Under the pieces are notes generated by a model. It made no database searches, was not told the DNA's origin, and saw only the letters and a program-made list of their open reading frames with translations. This document shows, piece after piece, positions 1-45,239 of a stretch of DNA of 64,000 nucleotides. The DNA comes from a virus. Every line of letters starts with the position of its first letter. Position 1 is the stretch's first letter. A program made the translations under genes and the position numbers. The stretch lies in the IMG/VR virus record IMGVR_UViG_3300028844_008248. One strand, written 5' to 3'.

Positions 1-634
1 TAATAACAACTGGATTTCCATCTATGTCGGTAGCCGTAGCGGTTTCCCCGGCATCAAAGGTTCCAAACACATGTACCAACTGGAATTGTGTTTGACCTGT
101 TCCTACTTTGATGACTAAATCAATTACCGCCGTTGCGCCTGTTGTGTTACCTGTAAGTAATCTACCTTGAATCGTTCTATATACATCTTGGAAATCTGAT
201 GTTTGTATGAAGATAGGTCTTGTCCATTTACCATCAGATGTTCTTAGAATTTCTAGTGATGGATATCTGAAACTAACTTCATCATCAAATAGAATTCTAA
301 ATAGATATTGTAATGACTCTTCTGATCCTCGTGTTCTATAAAAACTTCTTATATTCTTAATAAGAAATTCTTTATCAACTAATACTGTGTCAGGAATATC
401 TATAGCAAATTGTGTATTGAAGAATCGTTGAACACCAACTATAGTTTTGTCAATATCTTTGTATTGTAATAGATTTCCAATTACTTCATAAGCTTCTCCC
501 TGTTGTTCAAGGAATTCATAATACTTTTCCATGAACACAATAAACTCTGGATGATTTGTGTTTACAAAATCTGGAAGTCTAGATGCAACTTGTAGGGATA
601 TTTTTTCAGTAAGTGGGCTATGTATTGGTGCCAT
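1..634 (-). CDS. Baseplate wedge protein, gp7/gpI-like (partial; N-terminal 211 aa in window, C-terminus beyond window start)
   Basis: Minus-strand ORF starting ATG at 632-634 immediately downstream of gp6-like gene; position after Baseplate_J gene as in T4 (6-7) and P2 (J-I); translation MAPIHSPLTEKISLQ... continuous to window edge. Confidence 0.35.
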   Translation of the reverse strand, partial: MAPIHSPLTEKISLQVASRLPDFVNTNHPEFIVFMEKYYEFLEQQGEAYEVIGNLLQYKDIDKTIVGVQRFFNTQFAIDIPDTVLVDKEFLIKNIRSFYRTRGSEESLQYLFRILFDDEVSFRYPSLEILRTSDGKWTRPIFIQTSDFQDVYRTIQGRLLTGNTTGATAVIDLVIKVGTGQTQFQLVHVFGTFDAGETATATDIDGNPVVI

Positions 635-636
635 GT

Positions 637-2415
637 TTATTTAATATCTTTAGTTAGGGTAAGTGTTAAACTATTTGCATCTGAAGAATCTATTGTGAAA
701 ATCTGTTCACGAATTGCTTCTAAATTATTATTAGCAGGAGTCACAATAATTTTCATGACACCTCCTGCCGGGACTGATTCGAATGCCACATTAGTAATAA
801 TCACTGTTCCAGTTGCGTAGTCAATAGTCCCGGCAGTTTCTGATAAAATTACTTTCGATCCACTAACAGTTCGATAACATCTTACAATACCATCTAGATC
901 ATCCATGAATACATCGGAGAACCCACCAATACCATGTTGGGAAGATATCAATGTTCCGGGTGTTATGATATTATTAAACTCTAGAGTGAATGTTCCCGCA
1001 ACGTTTAATGTTGGTTGAAATCTTTTCTCTATTGTTATTGATGTATCGTTATTTATTATTGATGTATTGGAATCGTCTATACGTTTAGTAAGAATAGTAT
1101 ATCTAAATGACTCTTCAAATATATTTAGATCGTCTGCAAAATAATCTGTTATCGCATCTGATATTTGTGTTTGTAATTCTCCTAATGTATTTGTCAATGT
1201 TACTTCGTTGTAAAACACTTCACTGATAATGTTTATATAAGTGAATTCTGGATCAACAAATATAGGTAGTATTGAAGTCACGTTTAAATTATCTAGGAAT
1301 GTAACCATAGATGCTTTATCAAAATCAGAAAATGTTATTTGTCCTAATGGCTTTGCCGCAATGAATACCCTTCCAAATTGTGGTGGAACTTCTGTTTCTC
1401 CCCCCCAAACTGTTATTGATTCTATATCTGATCTTTCATTTAGTAATAAGTTTTTATAATCAGAAGAAGTTACGGCTCTACCCTGTGTTGAAAATAATTT
1501 TGGAGCTAAGAACTTAACAGATTCATCAGATTCTATATCAGCACCACCGGATGCAGATGTATTTGTTGTAATAGTGAATGATGTTTCTCCAGCTACGCTA
1601 CCAATAGCAGTAAATATATTTGCCCCATTGGATAGTGGTCCGTCAGTAACCAGATATTCTACTTTTAAAATGTTGCCATCTCTTAATGACTTACCAACAA
1701 TATCGTTACCAAATGTTAATTCATATCTTAAATCCTCTACCTCTTGAACCCAATAGACTTTATCGGTTGCAGAAATATTTGTTGATGTAGTTGCTTTTGT
1801 CCATGCTTCTGTGAATGTATCGGTAGAAGAGTTTTGAACAGTGACTACAAAGTTTGATAGATCAACATTTGCGTTTGGTATTACAAATCTTTGTGTTGGG
1901 TCTGATAAATCTACTGTGAAATTAAAATTTAACAATGACCCCTGTTTGATTGGAACAGCAACCGCATCGTAATTGCCACCAGACTCAAGAACAGTAAATG
2001 ATTCAGTTGTTACATATTTAAAAATAGCCCCATCGATTGTTGTATTGAATACTGTGTTCTTATCTATAAGGATAGATGGAGGCAATCCAGTAACCGCCGG
2101 GAAATTTATATCAACAGTGGCGGTTGGTGCATTTATAGACGATGGAGTATAGTTAAGATGTTTAGCGATTGATACAATAGAATCACGAACTACAGCCGAA
2201 TCTATAAATGATTCGTTTGCTAATAGGTTAGCATAGAAAGCTATATAATGTGTGTTGTAGGCAAGTACGTTTAATAATACTTGCATACCAGACCCATCAA
2301 AGTCATAGTCTGTGAATTCGTCTTGTGTTTGTAAAAAAGCTTTTAGATTTTGTTTGATATTATCAAAATCTGTATCAACTATATTTAATTTATCCGATGG
2401 TGTTATGTGTGCCAT
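637..2415 (-). CDS. gp6: Baseplate wedge subunit, Baseplate_J family (T4 gp6 / P2 gpJ-like), 592 aa
   Basis: Size and N-terminal sequence pattern typical of Baseplate_J; immediately downstream of gp25/W-like gene as in W-J-I baseplate cassettes. Confidence 0.7.
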   Translation of the reverse strand: MAHITPSDKLNIVDTDFDNIKQNLKAFLQTQDEFTDYDFDGSGMQVLLNVLAYNTHYIAFYANLLANESFIDSAVVRDSIVSIAKHLNYTPSSINAPTATVDINFPAVTGLPPSILIDKNTVFNTTIDGAIFKYVTTESFTVLESGGNYDAVAVPIKQGSLLNFNFTVDLSDPTQRFVIPNANVDLSNFVVTVQNSSTDTFTEAWTKATTSTNISATDKVYWVQEVEDLRYELTFGNDIVGKSLRDGNILKVEYLVTDGPLSNGANIFTAIGSVAGETSFTITTNTSASGGADIESDESVKFLAPKLFSTQGRAVTSSDYKNLLLNERSDIESITVWGGETEVPPQFGRVFIAAKPLGQITFSDFDKASMVTFLDNLNVTSILPIFVDPEFTYINIISEVFYNEVTLTNTLGELQTQISDAITDYFADDLNIFEESFRYTILTKRIDDSNTSIINNDTSITIEKRFQPTLNVAGTFTLEFNNIITPGTLISSQHGIGGFSDVFMDDLDGIVRCYRTVSGSKVILSETAGTIDYATGTVIITNVAFESVPAGGVMKIIVTPANNNLEAIREQIFTIDSSDANSLTLTLTKDIK

Positions 2416-2694
2416 TTAGTTTACCTTGAATTTTTTTATAAACGTTTTATCAACTGATTCATATTCTACATACTCCCCCAACTCTTTGTTTATGTAATAC
2501 GATCCTTGTGGGGTATCCATTTTTATTTTGTCATACTCTGAATCTATACTAACAAACTTTAATTCGTTATTATCAAATCTTGGTAACAATCCTATCGCCA
2601 ATGATTTTACGTTGTAGTCCATATTGTCAAATAATCTAATCTTGTCTTCAACATCTTTTTTTGTGTTATTCTCATTCATATGTATAAGTAACAT
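2416..2694 (-). CDS. Small baseplate-cassette protein, 92 aa, hypothetical
   Basis: Tightly packed between gp25-like and gp6-like genes, start overlaps upstream stop. Confidence 0.45.
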   Translation of the reverse strand: MLLIHMNENNTKKDVEDKIRLFDNMDYNVKSLAIGLLPRFDNNELKFVSIDSEYDKIKMDTPQGSYYINKELGEYVEYESVDKTFIKKFKVN

Positions 2695-4220: not shown

Positions 4221-4505
4221 TTACCCTATAAAAACGTTTGAACTTCCGGTTACTCTTTTATGACTACACGAATCATTATCGTTTACTCTTACTGCTGGAA
4301 TACCACTAATAAAAACTGTTGATGATCCAGTTACCACCGTAGCTACACAGTGAGTTGGTGGTATTGGGCATGATACGTGTGGAGTTATTGCAGACCCAAC
4401 TACACTAGCCAATTGTCCATTTATAAGAACCGTTGATTGAAGAGTTGTTATGATCGCACCACCGCCATCATTGGTGTCTCCCATTCGAACTGCAAGCATT
4501 CCCAT
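4221..4505 (-). CDS. PAAR-repeat spike-tip protein (T4 gp5.4-like), 94 aa
   Basis: Gly/Thr/Val-rich PAAR-like sequence MGMLAVRMGDTNDGGGAIITT…; follows gp5-like spike gene. Confidence 0.75.
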   Translation of the reverse strand: MGMLAVRMGDTNDGGGAIITTLQSTVLINGQLASVVGSAITPHVSCPIPPTHCVATVVTGSSTVFISGIPAVRVNDNDSCSHKRVTGSSNVFIG

Positions 4506-4633
4506 GTTTGTTACCTTTATATTTTATTAATGCGTATTTATTGTTGATTAAATTTTCTTGGTATTCTTGATTCTGTTTGGTTATTATAAAACTGCCATAA
4601 TGTCTCTGGTATTCATTTCCAATGAATGCTAAT

Positions 4634-4877: not shown

Positions 4878-5834
4878 CTAATTGATAGTCACAATTTCTC
4901 CTTTTAATATTAATAATCCACCACCATCTATCGTTGCCTGTTCGGTTGCTCTTACGTTGATATTTGGTGCTGATACATCCATATCTCCTATCGAAGTTAT
5001 TGTTGTTCCCCCAAGTACTGTTATAGTTGAATTCCCTTTGACTAATACACTGGACCCACCATCTATAGTAACGTCAGAATCCCCATTGACAACTACCGAT
5101 TCGTTTCCAGTGAGAATGGTATTGAAATTTCCATCCACGTATAAATTTTTATCTGATACAATTATTTCCCAATCTGTTCCCACTATCTTTGTAATCCGTT
5201 CTCCCGATGGTCCTATCTCTTCATATGTACCCGACTTGTGATATGTATGAAGTCTTTCCGCACCTTCTGTATCATCAACTTCTATAACATGACCGCCTTC
5301 TGTTTGCCATACGTGATTGTTTGGATATGTACCTGCATATGTTGGTTTTGGTTCTTCAAACCTATTTTTTTTATCAGTAGTAGCATTTTCTAATTTATCA
5401 ACAAGTATGGTGTCAAGCTTATTTATTTCTTTTCCCGAAACTTCCTCGAATGTATCAGTATCAATAATACCCTTTGACCGGGCCAGTCTTGGTGTATCGG
5501 ATTCCCCCGTACTTGTATTTATACCACCAATAGTTCCCATGATAATAGGCTCTTGGCAAGATTCAGCACCATCAGAAAAGAAACCTACAACATTAGTTCC
5601 TATGTTAGCTCCCGTTGGTGAACGACCAACACCATCCAATGATTGAGTTGTTATAGGTTGTATGACGTGCGCCCAAGGTAAGTCTTCGGTTGGAACCAAA
5701 CTCTTTGACTCATTATGGTATCCATTTATACGAACCCGCAACCGTCCTATTTCAAGAGGATCATCCCGATCTTCGACTACACCAGTGAACCATGCCATTT
5801 GTGGGTATAATGCTTCAGTACTCATTACGTCCAA
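4878..5834 (-). CDS. gp5: Baseplate central spike protein (gp5 N-terminal OB-fold plus C-terminal beta-helix; no lysozyme domain), 318 aa
   Basis: N-terminal WFTGVVEDRDDPLEIGRLRVRI… OB-fold signature of gp5/VgrG/gpV; C-terminal repetitive V/T/G-rich beta-helix (…VTIDGGSSVLVKGNSTITVLGGTTITSIGD…). Confidence 0.6.
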   Translation of the reverse strand: MDVMSTEALYPQMAWFTGVVEDRDDPLEIGRLRVRINGYHNESKSLVPTEDLPWAHVIQPITTQSLDGVGRSPTGANIGTNVVGFFSDGAESCQEPIIMGTIGGINTSTGESDTPRLARSKGIIDTDTFEEVSGKEINKLDTILVDKLENATTDKKNRFEEPKPTYAGTYPNNHVWQTEGGHVIEVDDTEGAERLHTYHKSGTYEEIGPSGERITKIVGTDWEIIVSDKNLYVDGNFNTILTGNESVVVNGDSDVTIDGGSSVLVKGNSTITVLGGTTITSIGDMDVSAPNINVRATEQATIDGGGLLILKGEIVTIN

Positions 5835-7168
5835 TTCCTTCTAGGTGAATTTGATTTAGCACTAACAACATTATCAACAGTGACGGTAAATGGTGTTTGT
5901 GTATATGAATCTTTAATTATAGTTAATACTGTTACATAGGATGTTATCTCTACCTTATGTCTTACTGTCAATACTAAAAAGTTTCCCGACAATATTTCAT
6001 CAACTGAATCAGATACTGATGGATCAATTTGTGGTTCGTTGTTTGGTAAAGAAAATTCCACAACATCACCAACAGCTATTGTAGTATTCCCCGGTAAATG
6101 TACTTGAATTTTTATATTATTAGTTTCTTGTAATCGTGATACCCGCCTTTGTATAACATCTGGCTCTGGAGATAATATAGGGGTAGTTGTTGCATCATTA
6201 ACTTTACTCGATGCACATATAAAAAATAGTTTATGTGGGTCAACCGTTGATGGATTAAATTGTGCATTGAATAATCTACCATCTTCTAAATGTGAAAGCT
6301 TCCCATCGAATGTATAATCATATGTAAACGAATTAGTGTCAACCGTTTTCAATGTTAAATTATGTGTCAATAATTTTGAGTGTAACATCCCTCTACTAGA
6401 ATTATTTAGAGAGTTATACATGGAATCAAACTTGTATGTTGTTATTGAATTTTTACCAGATAGCTCGTTAGCATCTGTATTCAATGGTTCGTACACTAAC
6501 AAATGTTTTGGTTTTTGTGTAGCCAGTGATTCAATGGGTTTGAAATGATACCCTCTTGCATTTTCATAAAACTTATAACCAACCCCTTCATGTTGTTCGT
6601 TAGACTTCGCTCTAGATGCTAACCAATTGATACCATCAAAGGGTGTCCAGTGTGAAGGGAATATAACATTGACTCCGTTAGAACATTCCTCTGATTCAAA
6701 ACTGGTAGTTGAATCAAGGTATGTATCAAATATATTAGTTGCTATTTTATTTGGTTGTTTATCCTTGTTCGATACATACGATCTATTTATTTTTGTATGT
6801 AGGTCCGTAAATCGTTCTGGAGTTATCCCGTGTAAAACATACGCCTGTGTTTTGTCTTTGTAATTATGTCTATTCGATACATTGTATATAGTAAACACCA
6901 TATCAATATCATCGGTTGATGATGAAAATGAATCTACTAAGGGTGAGTTTATTATTACATGTATTTGAGTTTCACCACCAATGATAGGGACATTTTTAAA
7001 TAAATTCAATGAGTCTATAATAGAAACATCAAACGTCATTGAGTTTTCTACCAGCGATTCATATATATTAAATTCAAGGAATAATTTTGTTATGTCTACT
7101 GTTTCATTAGAGCCAATTATTTCTAATACTCCCAAATGATATTCGTGTGCTGATCTTCCAAAGGACAT
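5825..7168 (-). CDS. Baseplate hub protein (gp27 / gpD-like), 447 aa
   Basis: Immediately upstream of spike gene with overlapping start/stop, size class of hub proteins; assignment by synteny only. Confidence 0.4.
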   Translation of the reverse strand: MSFGRSAHEYHLGVLEIIGSNETVDITKLFLEFNIYESLVENSMTFDVSIIDSLNLFKNVPIIGGETQIHVIINSPLVDSFSSSTDDIDMVFTIYNVSNRHNYKDKTQAYVLHGITPERFTDLHTKINRSYVSNKDKQPNKIATNIFDTYLDSTTSFESEECSNGVNVIFPSHWTPFDGINWLASRAKSNEQHEGVGYKFYENARGYHFKPIESLATQKPKHLLVYEPLNTDANELSGKNSITTYKFDSMYNSLNNSSRGMLHSKLLTHNLTLKTVDTNSFTYDYTFDGKLSHLEDGRLFNAQFNPSTVDPHKLFFICASSKVNDATTTPILSPEPDVIQRRVSRLQETNNIKIQVHLPGNTTIAVGDVVEFSLPNNEPQIDPSVSDSVDEILSGNFLVLTVRHKVEITSYVTVLTIIKDSYTQTPFTVTVDNVVSAKSNSPRRNWT

Positions 7169-7170
7169 TG

Positions 7171-7674
7171 TTACCTACCTATAAGAGTTCTAAACTCTTT
7201 TACAAAATCAGTTATAAATTCAGGCTTGAGTATTTTTATAGACCTCTTAGCATCATTGAGTGTTGTTTCGTGTTCTAAATTTGTTATAGGATTCGCACCA
7301 ACTTCAGTAGAGTTTACTTGAAAGCCATCATCATTTTCATAGTGATGGATATCTGACAGACTTCCATATTTACTATTTACAAACTTTATTAACTCTTGTT
7401 GTGACATAGGAAAGCCAAAGAATGGGTTCAATGTTTTATTGATTAATATTATCACCCAATGTAATTGAGAGTCGCCATAGAATCTATGAGCAATTATATC
7501 AACCCTATCAACATCTTCCCATTCATATTTTTCATATATAACTTTATTGTCTAATGTATTAGAATGAACACGTATTCGTTTAAGAATATCTGTTACTAAT
7601 TTTTCTTCTCCGCTTCCGGTAACATCATATTGCAATGTTGGGAATTGAGCAAAAAATCTATTTGAAAATCCCAT
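7171..7674 (-). CDS. Baseplate-associated protein, 167 aa, hypothetical
   Basis: Operon position between putative tail-tube-junction and hub genes. Confidence 0.4.
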   Translation of the reverse strand: MGFSNRFFAQFPTLQYDVTGSGEEKLVTDILKRIRVHSNTLDNKVIYEKYEWEDVDRVDIIAHRFYGDSQLHWVIILINKTLNPFFGFPMSQQELIKFVNSKYGSLSDIHHYENDDGFQVNSTEVGANPITNLEHETTLNDAKRSIKILKPEFITDFVKEFRTLIGR

Positions 7675-8712: not shown

Positions 8713-8758
8713 ATGTATTCGATTCTCTGGTATATAAATAGTATTATGGCTTGTATAT

Positions 8759-8766
8759 TATTTATA
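8759..8766 (-). promoter_or_regulatory. T4-type late promoter TATAAATA (minus strand) for baseplate operon
   Basis: Plus-strand tatttata = TATAAATA on minus strand, about 47 nt upstream of ORF start at 8712. Confidence 0.5.
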
Positions 8767-8800
8767 TGCACATTTAGAACATTTCTATAATATTTGAAAT

Positions 8801-8845
8801 GAAAGTTAAGTGTTACTTAGCACCCGTAACTTTCACTTTTTAAAC
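8801..8845. terminator. Conserved hairpin GAAAGTTA-N18-TAACTTTC followed by T-run (member 1 of 3 of a recurring hairpin)
   Basis: gaaagttaagtgttacttagcacccgtaactttcactttttaaac; same arm sequence recurs at 18013-18036 and 19549-19578. Confidence 0.4.
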
Positions 8846-8865
8846 AACTGTGTTATGTGTGCTAC

Positions 8866-8985
8866 TAGTTACTACTAGTAACCACTAGTTAGTATAAATA
8901 CCACACTATATAACACTACTATTGTAGAGTTATATTAGTAGTTATTTCTAGTAGTTACTAGTAGTAACTAGTAGTTAGATGTAGG
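8866..8985. repeat. Two clusters of 10-bp ACTAGT-containing direct/inverted repeats (ctactagtta x3 ; ctagtagtta x3) flanking a TATAAATA box (8893-8900, plus strand)
   Basis: Read directly: tactagttactactagtaaccactagttagTATAAATAcc … ttctagtagttactagtagtaactagtagttag. Confidence 0.7.
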
Positions 8986-9033
8986 TTTGTATTATAAAAG
9001 TGTTATTTATTAATTATAACTTTCGTTAGGACT

Positions 9034-9534
9034 ATGAAAAAGAAAAAGAGCAAATATCATCAAGGAAAATTTACTCCAAAGAATCCAGATAAGTATATGG
9101 GAGATGTTAATAATATTATATATAGGTCTGGTTGGGAATTGCGGTATATGAGATTTTTAGACTCTTCTAGCTCTATTAAGAAATGGTGTTCGGAACCATT
9201 CTATATTCCATACATATCCGAAGTGGATGACTGTAAGCACAGATACTTCCCAGATTTCTTGGTATACACAAGAGAGGGGCATGGATATATAGTGGAAGTA
9301 AAGCCGTTGAGAGAGACTAAACCACCACGTAAGACATCAAGGAAGGATACTTACCTAGAAGAACGAAAGCGAAGGTATAGAGAAACGAAACGTTGGGTTA
9401 CATGGAGAACAAATAAATCTAAGTGGGGAGCGGCTGAAGCATTTTGTCAGAGGAATGGATTGCAGTTTAAATTGGTAACAGAGAAATCATTGGGCATCGA
9501 TGGGAAAACATATAAAAAAAAGAAAAGACTTTAA
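9034..9534 (+). CDS. PD-(D/E)xK superfamily nuclease (TnsA/Hjc-like endonuclease fold), 166 aa
   Basis: Motif …RYFPDFLVYTREGHGYIVEVKP… (PD…EVK); only plus-strand gene in a minus-strand region, preceded by late promoter box and followed by hairpin terminator. Confidence 0.5.
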   Translation: MKKKKSKYHQGKFTPKNPDKYMGDVNNIIYRSGWELRYMRFLDSSSSIKKWCSEPFYIPYISEVDDCKHRYFPDFLVYTREGHGYIVEVKPLRETKPPRKTSRKDTYLEERKRRYRETKRWVTWRTNKSKWGAAEAFCQRNGLQFKLVTEKSLGIDGKTYKKKKRL

Positions 9535-36911: not shown

Positions 36912-37482
36912 TCCAATAAAAAATATGCGTACCTATATATTTTCTTTGCGAGAAAATATTTCTCCACACGGGTTTAACATAATTAGCATGATAATTTAAT
37001 GCTCCATGTGTCGGATCATTTTCCTTCGAGTAATATTTCAAAATATAATCCGCAACACTTTTGGAAGTAGCCCATGCTAATTTATCTTTTGGATCATCCA
37101 ATTTCCCATCCATCGTCCATGAAAACATTGGAACCAGTTTCTTAGTTTTTCTGTTTCGTCTTTTTTCCCAAACAACTTTACATATTGTGGATGGATATTT
37201 GTAAGATAATAGTCTGTTAATCGTAACATATCCAATGGCAATTTGACCATCCATATTTTCATTTCTTGATTCCCAATAAATATTTAGTGCCAAACATCTT
37301 CGATCCTTTTTTGTCAAACTAGATTTGAAAGATGGTTTAACAGCAACCCTTTTCTTAAAAGCAATTTCTTTTTTTACTGCAACTTGCTTTGATACTGTTG
37401 TGTGTGCTGGTTGAATAAAAATTACCAACGCCAGAATAGTAATCACATAAGAAAAAAATAATTTCATTGGGACTCCGATCAT
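36904..37482 (-). CDS. Secreted cell-wall hydrolase, SleB/Hydrolase_2-like, 192 aa
   Basis: N-terminal signal peptide; …LALNIYWESRNENMDGQIAIGYVTINRL… SleB-type motif. Confidence 0.55.
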   Translation of the reverse strand: MIGVPMKLFFSYVITILALVIFIQPAHTTVSKQVAVKKEIAFKKRVAVKPSFKSSLTKKDRRCLALNIYWESRNENMDGQIAIGYVTINRLLSYKYPSTICKVVWEKRRNRKTKKLVPMFSWTMDGKLDDPKDKLAWATSKSVADYILKYYSKENDPTHGALNYHANYVKPVWRNIFSQRKYIGTHIFYWNE

Positions 37483-37730
37483 AGTTGTACAGTTTCTGTT
37501 TTTTGTTCGACTTCCAGAGATTCAGAATTTAATATCAACGTGTCTTCTTGTTGTTTTCTAATACCTTCCAAGATAGCTCGTTTCTGCTCCCTAGCGGTAA
37601 ACACTTGATGATTGTCCAGAGTTTCTTTCATACCATTTCTTCTAATATTTCTAGTAACTCTTTTTTTATTGAGTTTCTTCTGTTTTTTATTACTTAATTT
37701 TTTATTATTTTTGTTCATACATTCCTTCAT
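37479..37730 (-). CDS. Highly basic small protein, 83 aa
   Basis: K/R-rich N-terminus. Confidence 0.4.
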   Translation of the reverse strand: MKECMNKNNKKLSNKKQKKLNKKRVTRNIRRNGMKETLDNHQVFTAREQKRAILEGIRKQQEDTLILNSESLEVEQKTETVQL

Positions 37731-37884
37731 TTGTTATAATACAGTGTAACATAATTAAGGCCGAATGTCAACATATTATTTTATTAAAAAAGACCTCGAA
37801 CCACCCAACCAAAACAGAATATCATAGCCATCAAAAATATTCCTGTCGTTAATTGTGATTTATCATCTTCTGGATCATCCATAA

Positions 37885-39123
37885 TTAATCTCCCTTTATA
37901 TTCAATATCTGTTTTAGTGTATGTACAATATCAACCAAATCTTTTTGATTTTCCATAACAACATCAATATCTTTATATGCATCAGGAATTTCATCAATAA
38001 CGGATTGCCTCGTGTTACATACAATTCCTTCCATACGTTCTTCTAAATCTTCAAGAGTATATAAAGTTTTTGCTTTTGATCGTGAGAATCTTCTACCTGC
38101 ACCATGAGAACATGAATTAAAAGATTCTTGATTTCCCTTTCCACGTACAATAAAAGATTTCGCTCCCATAGAGCCGGGTATAATACCCATAGTTCCGGTG
38201 GAAGCATTAACAGCACCTTTGCGGGTAATCCATACATTTTTGCCATAGTGATGTTCTTTGGATACATAATTATGATGACATTGAACAACAGAATCTTTTA
38301 TAATAATATCCTTCTTATTCGAAAATAAATGATAAAACACCCCAAGAATTTGATCCATCATAACCTGTCGATTGTAATATGCATATTGTTGTGCAAGATT
38401 TAATGCTTCGACATATTCATCAAAATATACTGTACCTTCCGATAAGTAAGACAAATCTGCATCGGGAAGATTAATAAAATGTCGTTCCATATCTTTTTTT
38501 GCCAATTTTATATAGTGTTGTCCTATTCTATTTCCAAGATTTCTAGAACCAGAGTGTAGCATAATCCAAATATTATCCGATTCATCAACACACACTTCAA
38601 TAAAATGATTTCCACCACCCAGCGTACCAAGTCGGGAATATCCGTTTTCAAGAATTCGCTCTTTCATTTTTCGATCAGATATAATATGGTCAAATCCGTT
38701 TTCAAACATATTTTTCCATAATTTATCTCGGCTTCTACCCTTCGTGAACTCGTACTTGTTAGATTTAGAATCCTGAAACGATCTTTGATATCCAGATTTT
38801 CCACAAGGAACATTTTTAATTATTCTGTTGTGTAATAAATCTAACGTATTTTCTTTTAAGTCATGAGATGTCAGGTTTGTTTGTACCGCCATCATACCAC
38901 ACCCAATATCAACTCCAACAGAAGCAGGTACAATTGCGCCCGAAGTTGGAATAACCGAACCAACACATGCACCTTTGCCCAAATGAGCATCCGGCATTAC
39001 CGCAATATGTTTATGTATGAATGGAAGATTGGACATATGTTCTAATTGATCGTATGTAACCGAATCAATATCTTCAGTCCAAATCTTTACCGGGAATTTA
39101 CCCTTTGTCATTACCTGTTTCAT
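37885..39123 (-). CDS. rtcB: RNA-splicing/repair ligase RtcB (3'-phosphate/5'-OH RNA ligase), 412 aa
   Basis: Diagnostic …MPDAHLGKGACVGSV…, …HSGSRNLGN…, C-terminal …NSCSHGAGR… metal-binding motifs of RtcB. Confidence 0.85.
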   Translation of the reverse strand: MKQVMTKGKFPVKIWTEDIDSVTYDQLEHMSNLPFIHKHIAVMPDAHLGKGACVGSVIPTSGAIVPASVGVDIGCGMMAVQTNLTSHDLKENTLDLLHNRIIKNVPCGKSGYQRSFQDSKSNKYEFTKGRSRDKLWKNMFENGFDHIISDRKMKERILENGYSRLGTLGGGNHFIEVCVDESDNIWIMLHSGSRNLGNRIGQHYIKLAKKDMERHFINLPDADLSYLSEGTVYFDEYVEALNLAQQYAYYNRQVMMDQILGVFYHLFSNKKDIIIKDSVVQCHHNYVSKEHHYGKNVWITRKGAVNASTGTMGIIPGSMGAKSFIVRGKGNQESFNSCSHGAGRRFSRSKAKTLYTLEDLEERMEGIVCNTRQSVIDEIPDAYKDIDVVMENQKDLVDIVHTLKQILNIKGD

Positions 39124-39134
39124 TTATAACCTCT

Positions 39135-39323
39135 CTAATATGCAATTGCAAAATATAATACATAAAACCAACTAAAAAATCCATGCAATATTGCCCAACC
39201 AATATGATTCCAAGTCGAGTATGAAATTACAATAGCTAACACACAACCAAATCCAATTCCATCTGATACATCTATTTCAGTAGCCATATTATTTCTCTCC
39301 AACTCGATTAATACTGACCGCAA
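39135..39323 (-). CDS. Small membrane protein, 62 aa
   Basis: Hydrophobic. Confidence 0.35.
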   Translation of the reverse strand: MRSVLIELERNNMATEIDVSDGIGFGCVLAIVISYSTWNHIGWAILHGFFSWFYVLYFAIAY

Positions 39324-39489
39324 GTTTTTTATTCTTGGTTTTTCGTATGATATATTCTTCCTTCAATTTTTTATATCCATTTTTATCGGATATATCATAA
39401 CGAGTTATTTTAATTCCATTTTCTTTTCGTACTGTTTTCGTATCTTCATACGATTTGAAAACCATATTATACGCCATATAAAACTCCAT
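39289..39489 (-). CDS. Hypothetical protein, 66 aa
   Basis: ORF. Confidence 0.35.
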   Translation of the reverse strand: MEFYMAYNMVFKSYEDTKTVRKENGIKITRYDISDKNGYKKLKEEYIIRKTKNKKLAVSINRVGEK

Positions 39490-39515
39490 GTTAAAATTAA
39501 ACCAGACTCATACTA

Positions 39516-40421
39516 TCATACAACTTCTGGTTTGTCCATTATAAAATGGGCATAATCCAATAATTCTTCTTTATTTAATTCAAACTCTTCATGAAGTTCG
39601 GTAAGCTTTTTAAGAACTTTTCCAAGTCTCGATCCACTGGAATATCCAAGCTTCAATAAATCCTTACCATTAACCACTGGTGCAGGTTTTTCCTCTAATA
39701 CATCTAAGTCCGTTGCTTGGCTTTCTAACCATCCTGCAAAAGAGAAATCAACTTTTTCTACTGGCGTTCCTCGACCAGCCTGATCAGCTTTCGCTACCCA
39801 AAGTAATTCTGATAACGTTGCTGGATGAAGATTTCTTGCAAGTCGTTTGACCGCACCTTTACCAGCTTTATCTTTATACAAGGTAACAGGCTTCAGATGG
39901 TACTCTACCAACTTCAAAACTTTTGCTGTTGTGGCTTGGTCTACATTTAGTTTTTCGAGAAAGGTTTTAGTAGGAGCCAAACCAGCTTCTTCATGCCCTC
40001 GTGCGAAAGTATCCCATCCACCAACAAAAACTTTTTCCCCAGATTTAAATCCACCATCTTTTACCACTTTCAACACTGGATTATCATACCAAGTAACTTC
40101 TGGCTTTCCTAAGTCATGGCATAATACCGCAAGAAACAAGGTGAACCTTTGCCCATCTTCTAGATCAGAATCGCTTAAAAGCTCACTCAGAGCGTCTACG
40201 ACCATTTTAGTATGGGTCCATACATCACCTTCTGGATGCCAATCAGGACTTTGAAGCGTATCTGCCATATGCCTGAATTCTGGAAAAGTCTTATCAAAGA
40301 GTCCCAAATCCCATGCCAATTGAAGTCCAACAGATGGTTTTGGAGACTTCAAAAAAAGCTTCTTAAACTCTTCTGCAAACCTCTCTTTAGATACTGTATT
40401 TAATGTGTCAGTCATTTTCAT
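39516..40421 (-). CDS. tRNA nucleotidyltransferase (CCA-adding enzyme) C-terminal half: body + HD domain, 301 aa
   Basis: …ERFAEEFKKLFLKSPKPSVGLQLAWDLGLFDKTFPEF… (body) and …LAVLCHDLGKP… (HD motif); own SD GGAG and weak promoter. Confidence 0.7.
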   Translation of the reverse strand: MKMTDTLNTVSKERFAEEFKKLFLKSPKPSVGLQLAWDLGLFDKTFPEFRHMADTLQSPDWHPEGDVWTHTKMVVDALSELLSDSDLEDGQRFTLFLAVLCHDLGKPEVTWYDNPVLKVVKDGGFKSGEKVFVGGWDTFARGHEEAGLAPTKTFLEKLNVDQATTAKVLKLVEYHLKPVTLYKDKAGKGAVKRLARNLHPATLSELLWVAKADQAGRGTPVEKVDFSFAGWLESQATDLDVLEEKPAPVVNGKDLLKLGYSSGSRLGKVLKKLTELHEEFELNKEELLDYAHFIMDKPEVV

Positions 40422-40452
40422 AACTCCATTAGAACATTATTTAGGCTAATTG

Positions 40453-40830
40453 TCAAGTATTTTTTTGATCATCCATTGTTATTTTATTGTCGCCACGAAA
40501 AAAATAATTTAATCGTTTATCCCGTACTCTTTGTTTATCCCGTACTCTAGAAACACTCCATATCCCATCTTTATTTTCTTTATATACAAAAAATCTAAAT
40601 TTATTTGCAATACAAGTAGATCGTTTTACTACATTGTCTGACGCTCTTTTTTTATTATATTTTGCTATTGCCAGTAAATAGTTCCAATTATATTTTTCTA
40701 GAGTTGTTTTGGCTTCGTATAGACCACAACCAGTTTTGGTGCGAAATTTTCTTAGCTGGCTAATTTTATCTCTATTAGTCATTCGAGTCCTCACTCCAAT
40801 CATAATCATCAATACATCCACCATCTTCAC
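40453..40830 (-). CDS. Insert ORF 1 within split CCA gene, 125 aa (EF-Ts-N/UBA-like segment TKTGCGLYEAKTTLEKYNWNYLLAI)
   Basis: ORF within 1.1-kb insertion. Confidence 0.4.
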   Translation of the reverse strand: MKMVDVLMIMIGVRTRMTNRDKISQLRKFRTKTGCGLYEAKTTLEKYNWNYLLAIAKYNKKRASDNVVKRSTCIANKFRFFVYKENKDGIWSVSRVRDKQRVRDKRLNYFFRGDNKITMDDQKNT

Positions 40831-40957
40831 AATTCGGACAATAGTGAACTAGATATTCTGGATTTTCCCAACCCTCAGATACCATTTCGCTATCACATTT
40901 GTCAACTGGAAATCTACCGTTGCATTCAGAACAAATTGCAATGTCTGGAATTAACAT
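40775..40957 (-). CDS. Insert ORF 2, zinc ribbon, 60 aa
   Basis: CSECNG … CPNCEDGGC. Confidence 0.35.
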   Translation of the reverse strand: MLIPDIAICSECNGRFPVDKCDSEMVSEGWENPEYLVHYCPNCEDGGCIDDYDWSEDSND

Positions 40958-41253
40958 TGGTTATGATATCTTTGAAGATCATTATAATATTCTGAAAAAT
41001 ATTTTTCTCTTTCGATATTAAGAATAGCAATAATATCATTTAACATATCTGCTGTTTCTAGTTTTCCGTTTTTTGTAAGAGTATTTGGAAGAGTTGCGGA
41101 AAGTGCAGAAACGTCTTCTACATCTATTTTAACCTTAATATTAATATATTTAATATTTCTTTTTTCATATAAGGCATCAAATTCTTCATCTGTCAATGCA
41201 TCAATATCTTCACTGGTCATTTCATCTAATGTTTTCATATTGTTTCTATCCAT
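40951..41253 (-). CDS. Insert ORF 3, 100 aa, hypothetical
   Basis: ORF. Confidence 0.4.
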   Translation of the reverse strand: MDRNNMKTLDEMTSEDIDALTDEEFDALYEKRNIKYINIKVKIDVEDVSALSATLPNTLTKNGKLETADMLNDIIAILNIEREKYFSEYYNDLQRYHNQC

Positions 41254-41555
41254 TTTTCATCAAATTCTTGAGTCGGTAATTGATGTAATTTGAAAAAATC
41301 TTTGTTTTGTGGATAATCTCTAATATATAATCTAGCATAAAAAGGAATTACATTATTACTAATTTTAAATGAAGTTTGTGGTTTCATAGATACGGAAGAT
41401 AAAAATCGTACAACATGCATGATTCCATATGCAGAATATCTTTTTACTCCCCGCCCAATTAATTCATTTGTTTTTTCTTTAAATACTTCATATATTTCTG
41501 GTTTTTCTTTATGAATATCTTTAAATGTTTTCCAATGAGAATTTAGTTTAGTCAT
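41235..41555 (-). CDS. Insert ORF 4, 106 aa, hypothetical
   Basis: ORF. Confidence 0.4.
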   Translation of the reverse strand: MTKLNSHWKTFKDIHKEKPEIYEVFKEKTNELIGRGVKRYSAYGIMHVVRFLSSVSMKPQTSFKISNNVIPFYARLYIRDYPQNKDFFKLHQLPTQEFDEKWIETI

Positions 41556-42178
41556 AAAACAAGCTCCTTCATTTTATTAAAAGTTTCTGGTTCGACAGTC
41601 AATCCAAAACGACCAGCAAATTGAACTCCACGTAATACTCGAAGTGGATCATCACCAAACGTTTCAGGATCGACCATACGCAAAACACGATTTTTCAAAT
41701 CTTTCAATCCACCAAATGGATCGTGCCATCTACCATTAACACAAGGTCCATTTTCGTCTTCATCCCAAAACAATTCCATAGCAACGGCATTTATCGTAAA
41801 ATCTCTTCGCTTCATTGCGTTCTCCAATCCCATGAATGGATTGAGTTTAACATCAAACCCACAATGCCCAGCCTTAGTTTTAGAATCTGTTCTTGGAAGT
41901 GAAAGATCAAAGTCAAGACCATTCATTTTCATTTTATATACTCCAAAAGATTTTCCAACCTTTGAGTATTCTTCACCAGATTCTTCTAGGTAATGTTCGA
42001 ATTCATTTAAACTCATATTGTGGAATTCAACATCGAAATCATTAACATTCTCAAACATATCATCAGGACCATCTAAATCTGAAAGAGAAACCCATGAGTC
42101 ACGGACACAACCACCAACTAAATATAATTTAGCATGTTCTGGAAACATACTCATTAATGTTCTGAATTCTTTTTTCAT
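41552..42178 (-). CDS. tRNA nucleotidyltransferase (CCA-adding enzyme) N-terminal half: head + neck, 208 aa
   Basis: …LVGGCVRDSW… (GGxVRD), DFDVEF carboxylates, …RRDFTINAVAMELF…, …DPLRVLRGVQFAGRFG… class II NTase motifs; ends where body domain should begin. Confidence 0.75.
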   Translation of the reverse strand: MKKEFRTLMSMFPEHAKLYLVGGCVRDSWVSLSDLDGPDDMFENVNDFDVEFHNMSLNEFEHYLEESGEEYSKVGKSFGVYKMKMNGLDFDLSLPRTDSKTKAGHCGFDVKLNPFMGLENAMKRRDFTINAVAMELFWDEDENGPCVNGRWHDPFGGLKDLKNRVLRMVDPETFGDDPLRVLRGVQFAGRFGLTVEPETFNKMKELVL

Positions 42179-42266
42179 GACATTCCTTAAAAATTTTTAT
42201 CAAGTGGCATGGTGCTTGGTTGCCATCGGTGGCCTCTTAGACCTCACATACACACTTGATAAATAA

Positions 42267-42551
42267 TTAACCAACAATTCCATCGATAACTGATACTAGC
42301 ATATCGGCATATACCATGTCAACACTTTTCTTTACTTTGCGTTCTGCTTTCCAATATTGTACAGCTTCAACCGTGTAGAGGTCTTGACCTTCAACATATT
42401 CAATCGTAATCCAACCACGTTTGAGTTTCGTTCCATTGACTCGAAAAGCAAGAGTTGTTCCGTATGCTTTGTATTCTCTTGCGCCCCATGCTCCCAATGC
42501 CCAAAAATCAGTTGCTTTAATTTGGTCTAGAATTGTTTGCTGAACAGACAT
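42267..42551 (-). CDS. Hypothetical early protein (start at second Met after AGGAG; ORF-track start lies in promoter)
   Basis: Promoter 42589-42616; AGGAGATAAAAACATG. Confidence 0.45.
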   Translation of the reverse strand: MSVQQTILDQIKATDFWALGAWGAREYKAYGTTLAFRVNGTKLKRGWITIEYVEGQDLYTVEAVQYWKAERKVKKSVDMVYADMLVSVIDGIVG

Positions 42552-42588
42552 GTTTTTATCTCCTGAATCATTGTTTATCATGTAACCA

Positions 42589-42616
42589 GTATACCAGAGT
42601 TTTATTCGATGTCAAG
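42589..42616 (-). promoter_or_regulatory. Early promoter TTGACA-N16-TATACT (minus)
   Basis: agtataccagagttttattcgatgtcaa. Confidence 0.65.
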
Positions 42617-42863
42617 AATAAACATCAGATTCTTCAATCTTTCTCCCAAGTAATTTCTCTAGCTCTTTCAATTCACGGTTCAATTCAGCAAGTCGGGATC
42701 GAACTCGACCACCTGATAATTCACCATCACAAGTAAGATTTTCTGGAGAAAGGTCACTAAACACCTTTTCAGCCCATACCAAAATCTCTTCTTCGGTCTT
42801 TGGTAATTTTAATGATGGATCGAATATTTTATCCCATAACAAACGTTTCTTCATTTCTTTCAT
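42612..42863 (-). CDS. Hypothetical early protein, 83 aa
   Basis: GGAG SD; promoter 42907-42934. Confidence 0.45.
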   Translation of the reverse strand: MKEMKKRLLWDKIFDPSLKLPKTEEEILVWAEKVFSDLSPENLTCDGELSGGRVRSRLAELNRELKELEKLLGRKIEESDVYS

Positions 42864-42906
42864 TGTTTATCTCCGATAGGGTTAGTCAAATCTCAATTAC
42901 AAAGAT

Positions 42907-42934
42907 AGTATACCAGAGTTTCGGTAGGTGTCAA
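42907..42934 (-). promoter_or_regulatory. Early promoter TTGACA-N16-TATACT (minus)
   Basis: agtataccagagtttcggtaggtgtcaa. Confidence 0.6.
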
Positions 42935-42937
42935 GTT

Positions 42938-43171
42938 TTATTTAACATGCTGTGCAAAATATCTTTCACGTTTCGAGAGTTCATATCCTTTCGGAAGTCC
43001 TACTTTATTAAGAGTTTTGGTATCATGATATTCAGCCGGATAACCTGCTGTGCGAAGCTCTACAACCTGTTTAACGGCTTTATCTCTCGTATCTACAGGA
43101 AAGGCTTTTTTCCACTCAAAATTGGCTGTACCACCAACTCGATAATATGCAGTAAAAGTTCTTTTAGGCAT
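42938..43171 (-). CDS. Hypothetical early protein (start trimmed to MPKRTF… after GGAG)
   Basis: Promoter 43206-43234 overlaps ORF-track N-terminus. Confidence 0.45.
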   Translation of the reverse strand: MPKRTFTAYYRVGGTANFEWKKAFPVDTRDKAVKQVVELRTAGYPAEYHDTKTLNKVGLPKGYELSKRERYFAQHVK

Positions 43172-43205
43172 CTTCAATCTCCTTTGGTTCGGTTGACTAT
43201 GTAAA

Positions 43206-43234
43206 CAGTATAACAGAGTTTCGGAGTATGTCAA
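43206..43234 (-). promoter_or_regulatory. Early promoter TTGACA-N17-TATACT (minus)
   Basis: agtataacagagtttcggagtatgtcaa. Confidence 0.55.
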
Positions 43235-43530
43235 TGTTTATTTTCGGGTATGTAAAAGAAGGTGGGACGTTCTGTTTCTAGGTGTCCCAAGCCCAAGGCA
43301 ACTTTACGCCGCCAATGCTAGATCGTAATCATTTGCATTTATAATCTGATAGATTTTTTACTAGGCCAACTATCATCCTAGTGCTGTCTTAAAGATTATT
43401 ATATCCAATCGAATCCAGTTCGCCCCCATGAAAAAAGTGTATTGCACTTCTCGTTTTGATTATTATCCAATTTCGACATGTCAGAATAATAAACTAGATG
43501 GGGTTTCAACCATGAACAATACACTCTTAT

Positions 43531-43560
43531 GGTGGAGGCGGTGGGTATCGAACCCACGTC
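43531..43560 (-). other. Orphan tRNA 3' fragment (T-arm + acceptor 3' strand + CCA) with no matching 5' half
   Basis: minus strand …CGTGGGTTCGATACCCACCGCCTCCACCA; no complementary GGAGGCG within 150 nt. Confidence 0.45.
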
Positions 43561-43595
43561 TTAAATACTTTCGTCAATAAGATTATACAGCAATA

Positions 43596-43982
43596 TTATA
43601 CTATGTTGTACATACCATCCAATTTTGTAATACCATCTTGAAGATATGTTGGTATTGATTTATGTTCTTTTGTATTATCAAATACTGATAAAAATTTATT
43701 ACCATCTACTCCGGGGTTTGTACAAATCATTGTGAATTCAGGACCACGATAAACCCACTTAGGTAAAAATCGTTGTGTGTATATTCCATCTTGATACCAC
43801 TGACCCAACTCCACAACATCTTTTTTAGATTCCCAATATATTACATGATCTTTTTCAGTCGGATCAATATACCAAAAATAATTTAGTTTTGACTCCATAG
43901 GAATAACAACCCAATCTTCTTGATATCCGAAATATTCATAAATTTCATTTTGTAATTTAAAATATTCACCCAATAATTTCAT
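43596..43982 (-). CDS. Hypothetical protein, 128 aa
   Basis: ORF. Confidence 0.45.
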   Translation of the reverse strand: MKLLGEYFKLQNEIYEYFGYQEDWVVIPMESKLNYFWYIDPTEKDHVIYWESKKDVVELGQWYQDGIYTQRFLPKWVYRGPEFTMICTNPGVDGNKFLSVFDNTKEHKSIPTYLQDGITKLDGMYNIV

Positions 43983-44488
43983 ACAGTAATTCCTTTCTCA
44001 TGTAACTTCGCTTTCAAAGATTCTTCATCATCATCCGTCCAATTATCTTGCCATACTTTCAACAACGTTTTATACACCAGATAATTTGGATAATATTTTG
44101 GAGAATCCCAAATCCAATTATCACTTCGACTACCATTTCTAATAACTGATAACGCACTAGCAACTCCAGAACTACGAGATATTCCAGCATAACAATTCAC
44201 ACAAATTAAATCTATATTATCTTCATAATATTCAGTAAAATCTATAATGTCTCTTGCGTGTGATTCGTTAAATGGAATTATATCAGGATCAATATTACCT
44301 TCCCAATCTTTATTATCACTCACGTCATCAAACGTTAATTGTAATACATCCATCCTGTTTGGATCGGCTAGTAATTCTGCGAACCCATGACTACCATCAG
44401 GATGTTTCCCGGCAATTGATATTAATACATATGGTTGATCCCCGATATATTTTTCTATGTTTTGTTGGCTAAAAATTTTAAATATCAT
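43979..44488 (-). CDS. Cysteine-based phosphatase (dual-specificity/PTP-like, CX5R motif), 169 aa
   Basis: …ICVNCYAGISRSSGVA… = (V/I)xCxAGxxRS P-loop of Cys-phosphatases. Confidence 0.6.
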   Translation of the reverse strand: MIFKIFSQQNIEKYIGDQPYVLISIAGKHPDGSHGFAELLADPNRMDVLQLTFDDVSDNKDWEGNIDPDIIPFNESHARDIIDFTEYYEDNIDLICVNCYAGISRSSGVASALSVIRNGSRSDNWIWDSPKYYPNYLVYKTLLKVWQDNWTDDDEESLKAKLHEKGITV

Positions 44489-44832
44489 TTAATGTCTTCT
44501 CCATATTCAATTTTTAGATTTTCTTCACGCATGGCAACATCCACTATATCATTAATTTTTTTGTTCATTTCATCAAAAGCAGACGCTCTTTTTGCTAACT
44601 CTACTTTTATCCATTGTTTAAATTTATCGTTGTTGGTTAGTCTTTTAAATGCGTTCTTTTTATTTTGTTCAAGACTTTTTGAATCAGCACCAGTAGCCAT
44701 CACCCCACTTGCTCTATGGAATATTCTAACACAATTTTTGTGTTTGTTTCTGTGTTGTCCACCAGCACCAGACCCAGAATAAAAACTGATCTCAAAATCC
44801 TTTTTTGTCATTCCAAATATATGTTCTCTCAT
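44485..44832 (-). CDS. Peptidyl-tRNA hydrolase, ArfB/ICT1-like release-factor-family GGQ protein, 115 aa
   Basis: …SGSGAGGQHRNKHKNCVRIFH… GGQ motif + basic C-terminal tail. Confidence 0.65.
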   Translation of the reverse strand: MREHIFGMTKKDFEISFYSGSGAGGQHRNKHKNCVRIFHRASGVMATGADSKSLEQNKKNAFKRLTNNDKFKQWIKVELAKRASAFDEMNKKINDIVDVAMREENLKIEYGEDIK

Positions 44833-45239
44833 TACATTTCTATATATCTATTATCAGATATATCCAAGTCGGTATGATATTCGGGTTCGATTACTATTAT
44901 ATTTCTTTCATTACAAATACTTTTCATATTCGCTGTTCCATTTCCACCCGGAAACGCAATTGCAAAATCTGGTTTGGTATCAGCCATTTCTTTGTTACGA
45001 ATTCGACCAGCCATATATCTACCATATTTTTTCCACTTGGCATATATAATCTGATGATCTACTTTGTTATGTTCGGCCCAACATGCGGCTAACGTATCTG
45101 CTCCAGAGGCTCCACCCAAGACTAATGAAATCTCTTCATTATAATCAACGTAATATTTATTTAATATCAAATCAATAAATTCATTATCTGTAAAATCCCT
45201 ACCACCTGTTATCAAAATTTTTATTTTCATACGTTCCAT
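44832..45239 (-). CDS. SLOG/LOG-like Rossmann-fold protein (DUF2493-like), 135 aa
   Basis: …KILITGGRDF… …LVLGGASGADTLAACWA… …AFPGGNGT… Gly-rich nucleotide-binding-loop pattern. Confidence 0.4.
   Translation of the reverse strand: MERMKIKILITGGRDFTDNEFIDLILNKYYVDYNEEISLVLGGASGADTLAACWAEHNKVDHQIIYAKWKKYGRYMAGRIRNKEMADTKPDFAIAFPGGNGTANMKSICNERNIIVIEPEYHTDLDISDNRYIEM

Follow-up and report, generated by a model that had tools for sequence, protein, structure and literature searches.

Can a tRNA nucleotidyltransferase be encoded as two separately translated pieces? The question is raised by a 64,000-nucleotide stretch of viral DNA (IMG/VR record IMGVR_UViG_3300028844_008248, hereafter the window), in which the original prediction placed a CCA-adding enzyme divided by an insert of about 1.1 kb. 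We find all six open reading frames (ORFs) of this proposal on the minus strand where they had been placed (Table 1): an N-half, four small insert ORFs (i1 to i4) and a C-half. The two outer ORFs make up one enzyme in two separately translated halves, since their profile matches abut and nothing is missing between them. The explanation that we consider probable is that this is a 'genes-in-pieces' class II tRNA nucleotidyltransferase of the CCA-adding or repair type, with a C-terminal HD domain, whose two polypeptides would assemble non-covalently.

Complementary halves of one class II enzyme

The Pfam family PF01743 matches the whole of the N-half with 59 bits against a cut-off of 23, and the C-half matches PF12627 from position 14 to position 60 (40.5 bits). 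The C-half match to the HD domain PF01966 is marginal at 20.9 bits, just under the cut-off of 22, and there is a faint match to the tRNA_NucTran2_2 tail; PF01966 is among the precomputed Pfam domains of two orthologous proteins, P0002 and P0003. Three independent profiles abut at the junction: phrog_2244 (phage tRNA nucleotidyltransferase) is matched at 3-163 by the N-half (E=3.6e-43) and at 163-375 by the C-half, NF008137 at 2-164 and 169-261, and TIGR02692 at 20-198 and 198-447. We therefore regard the ORFs as complementary halves and not as two complete genes. An alignment of the junction agrees with this, as fused homologues read through the breakpoint and the split version has between zero and four extra residues, with none missing.

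All of the motifs on which the original prediction had drawn are present. The N-half contains motif A (GGCVRD and DFDVE) and motifs B, C and D (RRDFTINA, DPFGGLKDL and DDPLRVLRG), as in class II nucleotidyltransferases, together with DDPLRVLRGVQFAGRF; the C-half contains ERFAEEFKKLF and LFDKTFPEF, and has the metal-binding residues of an HD domain within HPEGDVWTHT, LCHDLGKP and AKAD. In an alignment of 50 sequences, 49 of them fused homologues, residues D47 and D49, R124-N130, D153, G157, D160, D177 and R180 are invariant and are all found in the window protein; G22, G23, R26 and D27 are nearly invariant, and the HD residues H278, H310, D311 and D421 are invariant and kept in the window protein. 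Head, neck, body and tail are not in one polypeptide here, as they are divided between two ORFs about 1.1 kb apart in the genome. The break had been placed at a clean border between neck and body and this proved incorrect, as it lies inside the neck, between positions 13 and 14 of PF12627 and about 25 residues past motif D.

We modelled the two halves as an artificially joined chain with AlphaFold2, and the model (predicted local distance difference test, pLDDT, 88.4; predicted template modelling score, pTM, 0.87) shows the halves together making one predicted fold, without addressing the binding of one to the other. Template modelling (TM) scores of the joined model against full-length CC-, CCA- and A-adding enzymes are 0.53-0.72. 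The junction (208|209) is at the end of helix 197-215, ahead of a lower-confidence linker and helix 220-233, and fused homologues have a shorter, proline-containing linker at this position. The loop between motifs A and B is present, with residues 101-110 modelled at low confidence (pLDDT 53). The best sequence match in the Protein Data Bank (PDB) is the CC-adding enzyme of Aquifex (3WFO), to which residues 120-497 of the joined query align across the junction, and the best NCBIfam match is 'multifunctional CCA addition/repair protein', with 102.5 bits against an equivalog cut-off of 451.

The break and the gap in related phages

Uninterrupted versions of the gene, for which the original prediction had proposed to look, occur in relatives of the phage. 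In MT835871 the two halves match at adjacent coordinates in the same frame (8013-8492 and 8496-9212, by tblastn), and in 51 of 54 distinct IMG/VR contigs, and likewise in contig L028, the N-half and C-half matches are in one frame with no intervening stop. Among the 120 best protein matches to the joined query all except the top four are full-length, at 456-581 aa. The nearest fused relative is P0005, encoded on contig L083 with a Hydrolase_2 gene downstream, which is 44% identical to the split enzyme in each half by tblastn and 47% identical in the A3 alignment; the IMG/VR relatives are all at most 38% identical, and fused. An exact-peptide scan of IMG/VR with the N-half gave no match, and IMG/VR has no close relative; nor did 50,697 phage records contain any match to the locus by megablast.

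Nine distinct sequences, obtained from different samples and with different assemblers (JGI, ENA and Logan), share the break at one and the same residue. Both halves are present on one contig in six of these (the window, L020, L021, L027, L085 and L089) and only one half is seen in the other three (L023, L086 and L088); the metagenome scan contributed one new split contig, L027. Public data also contain C-halves (P0002-P0004, 64-72% identical) and N-halves (P0122-P0128, 49-72% identical) as stand-alone proteins, with the pieces either unnamed or labelled by domain only. N-half orthologues with 61-72% identity stop at the same residue, C-half orthologues are 50-72% identical, and in every lineage the N-half ends with ETFxxMxxL(V/I)(L) and a stop codon, and the C-half starts with M..(D/E)(T/S)Lxx(V/I/L)(S/P)KER(F/Y). 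The flanks of the window and L020 correspond as well, with an upstream ORF 83% identical, downstream ORFs 62-77% identical, and RtcB and Hydrolase_2 genes downstream. In a neighbour-joining tree of the N-half region, 179 of 200 bootstraps unite the seven split N-halves, and their sister is the fused P0005; the simplest reading of these sequences would be a single ancestral cut.

The gap between the halves varies from 188 to 2176 nt and contains one to four small ORFs, with content that is unrelated among lineages (Table 1). None of the window's insert ORFs matches the inserts of other lineages by BLAST below E=5e-4; the only marginal matches (E ~6-9e-4) are those of i4 to L020_i1 (30% over 37 aa, in the UBA-like N-terminus) and, over short stretches, to L027_i2 and L089_i1. 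Between other lineages there are related cassettes, with L027_i2 and L089_i1 being 92% identical, L023_i2 and L088_i1 83%, L020_i2 and L027_i3 66%, and L021_i2 and L023_i1 48%. In L089 the sole 50-aa ORF is bounded by an exact 17-nt direct repeat, AGGAACTTATATTATGA, corresponding to the N-half's 3' end with its stop codon, and 0 of 500 shuffles reach this length. An exact 15-nt direct repeat in L085, TTTAAAATAATGCTT, at 5005 and 5661 around a cytochrome-c-like ORF, is weaker by length alone, as 7 of 500 shuffles reach it. On these comparisons the insert is not one element; the gene was split long ago, and the gap is a slot for variable cassettes.

Several individual cassettes carry further traces. 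L023_i2 (365..395) opens with MTDTLENVSK, a copy of the first codons of the C-half, and in L021 an exact 16-nt repeat (5253..5268 and 5579..5594) joins i2 to the start of the C-half; such copies of the C-half 5' end within inserts suggest that, as cassettes turned over, recombination took place at the start of the C-half. The cytochrome-c-like ORF of L085 (L085_i3, 5014..5670; PF00034/PF13442) bears a signal peptide, and is odd cargo for a phage to have between the halves. Phages of Pelagibacter, Acinetobacter and Polaribacter have free-standing homologues of i1. Among the insert cargo, only L021_i1 (4230..4595) has an evident functional tie to the split enzyme: it has a cREC_REC domain (PF20274, 61 bits), of a family whose proposed role is the processing of 2',3'-cyclic phosphates and which in phages is associated with RNA ligases (PMC7824862).

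Homing-endonuclease folds had been suggested as something to look for in the insert. Searches of the Pfam, PHROGs and NCBIfam sequence profiles, with no search at the level of structure, found no HNH, GIY-YIG, LAGLIDADG or other nuclease in the window's four ORFs, and the window's interruption therefore has no recognisable homing endonuclease; other features of genes in pieces, a gene contiguous in relatives, cut at a defined site and left as two intact complementary ORFs, are present. In the relative L027, an ORF matching MUG113/T5orf172 of the GIY-YIG superfamily (28.6 and 26 bits, both above cut-offs) and phrog_681 'endonuclease' lies right after the N-half. A homing-endonuclease origin of the cut is possible, and the L027 ORF could equally be a later invader of an already split gene; whether such an endonuclease is cause or invader is equally a question raised about gene 43 in Aeromonas phages (PMC2988022).

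Proposed assembly of the pieces and the alternatives

We propose that the gene was cut once, in the ancestor of a clade of uncultured T4-like phages, in the inter-helix linker of the neck, with the upstream part presumably acquiring a stop codon and the downstream part a start codon. The N-piece (about 200 aa) would provide the catalytic core with motifs A-D and the flexible loop, and the C-piece (about 285-300 aa) the tRNA-binding body and tail together with the HD domain. Both pieces would be translated separately off one early transcript, through their own Shine-Dalgarno (SD) sequences or by translational coupling, and would associate non-covalently into a normally folded enzyme that rebuilds damaged tRNA 3' ends alongside RtcB, the transfer-messenger RNA (tmRNA), an ArfB-like hydrolase and the phage tRNAs. 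The gap would tolerate insertions, with unrelated small ORFs being traded between lineages by recombination at short junction repeats, and the window's four ORFs would be cargo and not parts of the enzyme.

We infer that the pieces assemble into an active enzyme because both are under purifying selection, their linkage is conserved and there is precedent. Pairwise Nei-Gojobori estimates of the ratio of nonsynonymous to synonymous substitution rates (dN/dS) are 0.27-0.36 for the N-half and 0.14-0.24 for the C-half, with dS at 0.65-1.6 and synonymous sites near saturation; these ratios are well below 1 and purifying selection acts on both halves. As to precedent, the split pieces encoded by nrdA-a and nrdA-b of phage Aeh1, which are separated by mobE, reassemble into an active enzyme (Friedrich et al. 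2007, as summarised in PMC2988022), and the split gp43 of phage 25 likewise reassembles and is active according to the same summary (PMC2988022).

Several points weigh against this explanation. The joined model, being an artificial single chain, has no bearing on mutual binding of the pieces. The specificity of the enzyme for CCA, CC, A or poly(A) is not readable from sequence, and no NCBIfam equivalog cut-off is reached. The check for a second intact CCA copy spanned the 64-kb window only. Lastly, L086 has an N-half with no C-half anywhere on its 10.6-kb contig, and therefore the pieces need not adjoin or, perhaps, always be retained as a pair; in this phage the C-half has either been lost or lies far from the N-half. 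The L086 contig is T4-like, with gp44- and gp45-like genes near, and its N-half ends with ETFNVMKQLV and a stop codon, followed by a 737-aa acidic ORF.

The serious rival, which we think unlikely, is that the pieces are now independent proteins, with the C-piece acting as an HD 2',3'-cyclic phosphodiesterase/phosphatase or as a tRNA-binding factor that prepares ends for repair, and the N-piece, alone or with another partner, being a minimal nucleotidyltransferase. The N-piece of L086 without a nearby C-piece would fit such a division of function, as would the invariance of the HD residues; Yakunin and colleagues reportedly found in 2004 that the HD domain of E. coli Cca is active on its own. 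A homologue in L047 (5830..7002) that lacks a head domain points the same way: it is a 390-aa phage ORF in which a motif D remnant, KPLRVLRAFQMAG, is followed by body and HD, and there is no N-half within 6 kb upstream. This ORF is a distinct derivative of the enzyme family and a truncated one. However, the cut is inside one Pfam domain and not between autonomous domains, the N-piece has neither the body nor the tail that hold tRNA in all solved class II enzymes, and the two pieces are under similar purifying selection. Moreover, their linkage, orientation and order are kept in six lineages despite heavy turnover of the intervening DNA.

It is barely credible that the interruption is removed so as to give one polypeptide, although self-splicing introns, inteins (whole or split) and ribosome bypass of the T4 gene 60 type are all known in T4-like phages (PMC2988022; bioRxiv 10.1101/2022.08.31.505936). 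An E-value scan of positions 37000-45000 with Rfam found no intron, the only matches being the tmRNA and a chance match to a long non-coding RNA; together with insert content that is unrelated between lineages, this led us to reject group I and group II introns. An intein or split intein is rejected because the zero to four extra residues at the junction leave no room for its fragments, and bypass because the gap is densely coding, lineage-specific in content and up to 2.2 kb long, far beyond the 50-nt bypass element. In addition, the N-piece ends and the C-piece starts exactly where fused homologues continue.

Less credible still is a decaying pseudogene or an artefact of sequencing or assembly. 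Some assemblies do contain CCA genes with frameshifts, as in the bacterial contig L087, but here the identical break recurs nine times, in distinct sequences whose samples and assemblers are independent, the ORFs of both halves are intact and have dN/dS well below 1 at nearly saturated synonymous sites, all catalytic residues are kept, and the halves of other lineages have no inactivating changes. The L087 case, with adjacent N and C ORFs (6001..7336) on a 294-kb contig that has ribosomal protein L20 and IF3 genes near, was examined as a candidate split and rejected: its frameshift is at another site, some 10 residues upstream of where the phage genes break, and there is a second frameshift downstream. 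An assembly error or a pseudogene is the probable explanation, and the case is unrelated to the split in the phages.

The locus and its place among phage genes in pieces

All genes in the 37.5-45 kb region of the window are on the minus strand (Table 1), and the overlaps of stop and start codons are tight. The stop codon of the N-half overlaps the start of i1, which is translationally coupled to it, and the four insert ORFs are chained by overlapping stop and start signals (ATGA, ATGTTAA and ATGACTAA). The ORFs themselves stand as originally described and the likely start sites of three of them differ slightly: i2 and i4 likely begin at 41238 and 40782, each overlapping the preceding stop codon, in agreement with public gene calls on the identical contig L024, where i2 is 95 aa. 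The true start of the C-half is probably its second ATG, at 40415, because GGAG lies 8 nt upstream and both the public gene calls and the L021 and L089 orthologues agree.

Table 1. Features of the window (positions on the 64,000-nt stretch) and layout of the contigs that carry the split gene. For contigs, N and C denote the halves, with ORF lengths in aa.
Feature or contig	Coordinates	Strand	Description
RtcB RNA ligase	37885..39123	-	PF01139, 437 bits; downstream of and outside the split gene
C-half	39516..40421	-	299 aa from 40415, probable start (301 aa from 40421); remaining neck, body, HD, tail
Spacer ahead of C-half	40416..40452	-	GGAG SD, 8 nt before ATG 40415
Insert ORF i4	40453..40782	-	109 aa from ATG 40782, likely start; weak UBA-like N-terminus
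Insert ORF i3	40775..40957	-	60 aa, Cys-rich, two CxxC pairs; phrog_13332, E=1.8e-7
Insert ORF i2	40951..41238	-	Acidic; 95 aa from ATG 41238, likely start (100 aa from 41253)
Insert ORF i1	41235..41555	-	106 aa; phrog_13625, E=8e-15; promiscuous small phage ORF
N-half, class II tRNA nucleotidyltransferase	41552..42178	-	208 aa; head and first neck helices, motifs A-D
N-half signals			Own SD AAGGAA 5 nt upstream; TGA stop overlaps ATG of next ORF (ATGA)
Promoter-like site upstream of N-half	42588..42615	-	TTGACA-N16-TATACT, extended TG; 11/12 matches
Permuted tmRNA	43253..43644	-	Rfam RF04321, 112.6 bits; RF01850 (betaproteobacterial), 96.6 bits
RF-1-domain protein, ArfB-like peptidyl-tRNA hydrolase	44485..44832	-	GGQ motif; 57.5 bits
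YAcAr/SLOG-family protein	44832..45239	-	57.7 bits; adjoins RF-1-domain protein
Window = L024			N208, 106, 95, 60, 109, C299; gap 1130 nt to ATG 40421, 1136 nt to 40415
L020			N199, 107, 69, C285; gap 515 nt
L021 = L022			N197, 121, 271, 52, C282; gap 1332 nt
L027			N-end, 138, 51, 68, C-start; gap ~777 nt
L085			N194, 290, 62, 218, 133, C282; gap 2176 nt
L089			N198, 50, C-start; gap 188 nt
L023			Only C-half and upstream insert ORFs seen
L088			Only N-half seen
L086	4414..5061 (on L086)		Only N-half seen

Of the expression signals proposed for the C-half, the SD sequence is present, and the TTGACA at 40453-40458, which had been taken for a weak promoter, has no acceptable -10 element; the promoter and terminator scan is silent at this position and reports no promoter- or terminator-like sites within the insert. 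Upstream of the N-half there are three near-identical TTGACA-N16-TATACT sites on the minus strand (42588..42615, 42907..42934 and 43207..43234), each with 11/12 matches. The one nearest to the N-half is probably the early promoter of the transcription unit, and is only suggestive in that the total number of such sites equals the shuffle expectation. The three sites are about 300 nt apart and ahead of small ORFs, and look like a repeated early-promoter cassette as in T4-like phages.

Among the insert ORFs, i2 has no family match in Pfam, PHROGs or NCBIfam, i3 is probably a zinc ribbon, with zinc-ribbon Pfam matches that are sub-threshold, and i4 matches UBA_8/TAP_C below the Pfam threshold. An 18-nt tandem duplication is present in i4 at 40515-40548, where an exact 16-nt unit is repeated at 18-nt spacing (GTTTATCCCGTACTCT on the plus strand) and encodes the doubled peptide RVRDKQ/RVRDKR; its form indicates what may be a recent small tandem duplication.

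RtcB, the tmRNA, the tRNAs and the RF-1 and YAcAr genes form a translation-rescue and RNA-repair neighbourhood, and they match the phage RNA-repair and translation-rescue repertoires reviewed in PMC7824862. Synteny with RtcB is the same in L020, L024 and L085, the RF-1-domain and YAcAr/SLOG genes are also present in L020 and L021, and six tRNA genes lie farther upstream relative to transcription. ARAGORN also identifies the tmRNA as permuted, with the tag peptide ANDYDLALAA, and an ORF at 43596..43982 overlaps its 5' end; L085 has a T4 Rnl1-type RNA ligase upstream (1361..2425). In this setting the role of the enzyme would be to restore tRNA 3' ends damaged by host nucleases. The phage is T4-like, with gp32, gp59 and Trans_coact domains on L024, and the best match of its gp32 among cultured phages is 46% (a marine T4-like phage), with Methylophilales phage Melnitz at 44%. 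The flavour of the tmRNA and the similarity of gp32 to that of Melnitz hint at a betaproteobacterial host.

The analogy with split genes of the T4 family that was drawn at the outset is well founded. The closest parallel is gene 43 of Aeromonas phages 25 and 44RR (43A/43B), where the position of the split is also conserved and the intervening sequence varies, with a seg endonuclease gene between the parts in one phage and an untranslated spacer in another (Petrov et al. 2006, as summarised in PMC2988022), just as L027 has the T5orf172 ORF and other lineages do not. The enzyme is a different one, however, and here up to four ORFs intervene, with cassette exchange through 15-17-nt junction repeats. 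NrdA of Aeh1 is likewise an enzyme of a T4-like phage whose gene is in two ORFs, contiguous in relatives and translated separately with no splicing, but its intervening gene is the HNH homing endonuclease mobE, whereas the window has no recognisable endonuclease, and its split is confined to that phage, whereas the one described here is common to a diverged clade with variable intervening cargo. In the T4 topoisomerase genes 39/60, divided by insertion of mobA, a subunit gene that is single in relatives is also divided and the enzyme assembled from pieces (PMC2988022), but the 50-nt bypass of gene 60 has no counterpart here, where the gap consists of 188-2176 nt of ordinary ORFs.

Single-chain class II enzymes (Aquifex 3WFO-3WFS, Thermotoga 3H37 and Bacillus 1MIV) have the same motifs, and the same fold as the split enzyme once its halves are joined, but each is one polypeptide and not two. 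The HD domain is common to the split enzyme, the E. coli-type multifunctional enzyme and the Aquifex CC-adding enzyme. In Aquifex the labour is shared by two complete enzymes, one CC-adding and one A-adding, and not by one enzyme that has been cut. A literature search for a natural two-piece enzyme of the class II CCA-adding type found no earlier description, with part of its matches being non-specific. The split gene thus belongs to the known class of phage genes in pieces, and what is new is which enzyme is affected, how deep and how conserved its split is, and how clearly the gap is seen to be a slot for exchangeable cassettes.

We regard it as quite improbable that the split is itself adaptive and the locus a modular tRNA-repair platform. 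If it were, the stoichiometry of the catalytic core relative to the tRNA-binding/HD module could be tuned, the core could pair with other partners, as is hinted by L086, and the co-transcribed gap would be an expression slot for counter-defence or RNA-repair cargo, for example the cREC domain of L021.

For sequence annotation, the finding means that pangenome tools would count the two pieces as two unrelated genes. With it a translation-repair enzyme joins the short list of genes in pieces (NrdA, gp43 and topoisomerase), and the locus is a well-resolved case of an old split becoming a hot spot for cassette insertion, with junction repeats showing how ORFs entered. A cut in the neck that is clade-wide and selectively maintained would mark a natural point of separation between the catalytic core and the tRNA-binding/HD module of class II enzymes, and the phage genes are ready-made sequences for reconstituting how the neck couples these two parts.

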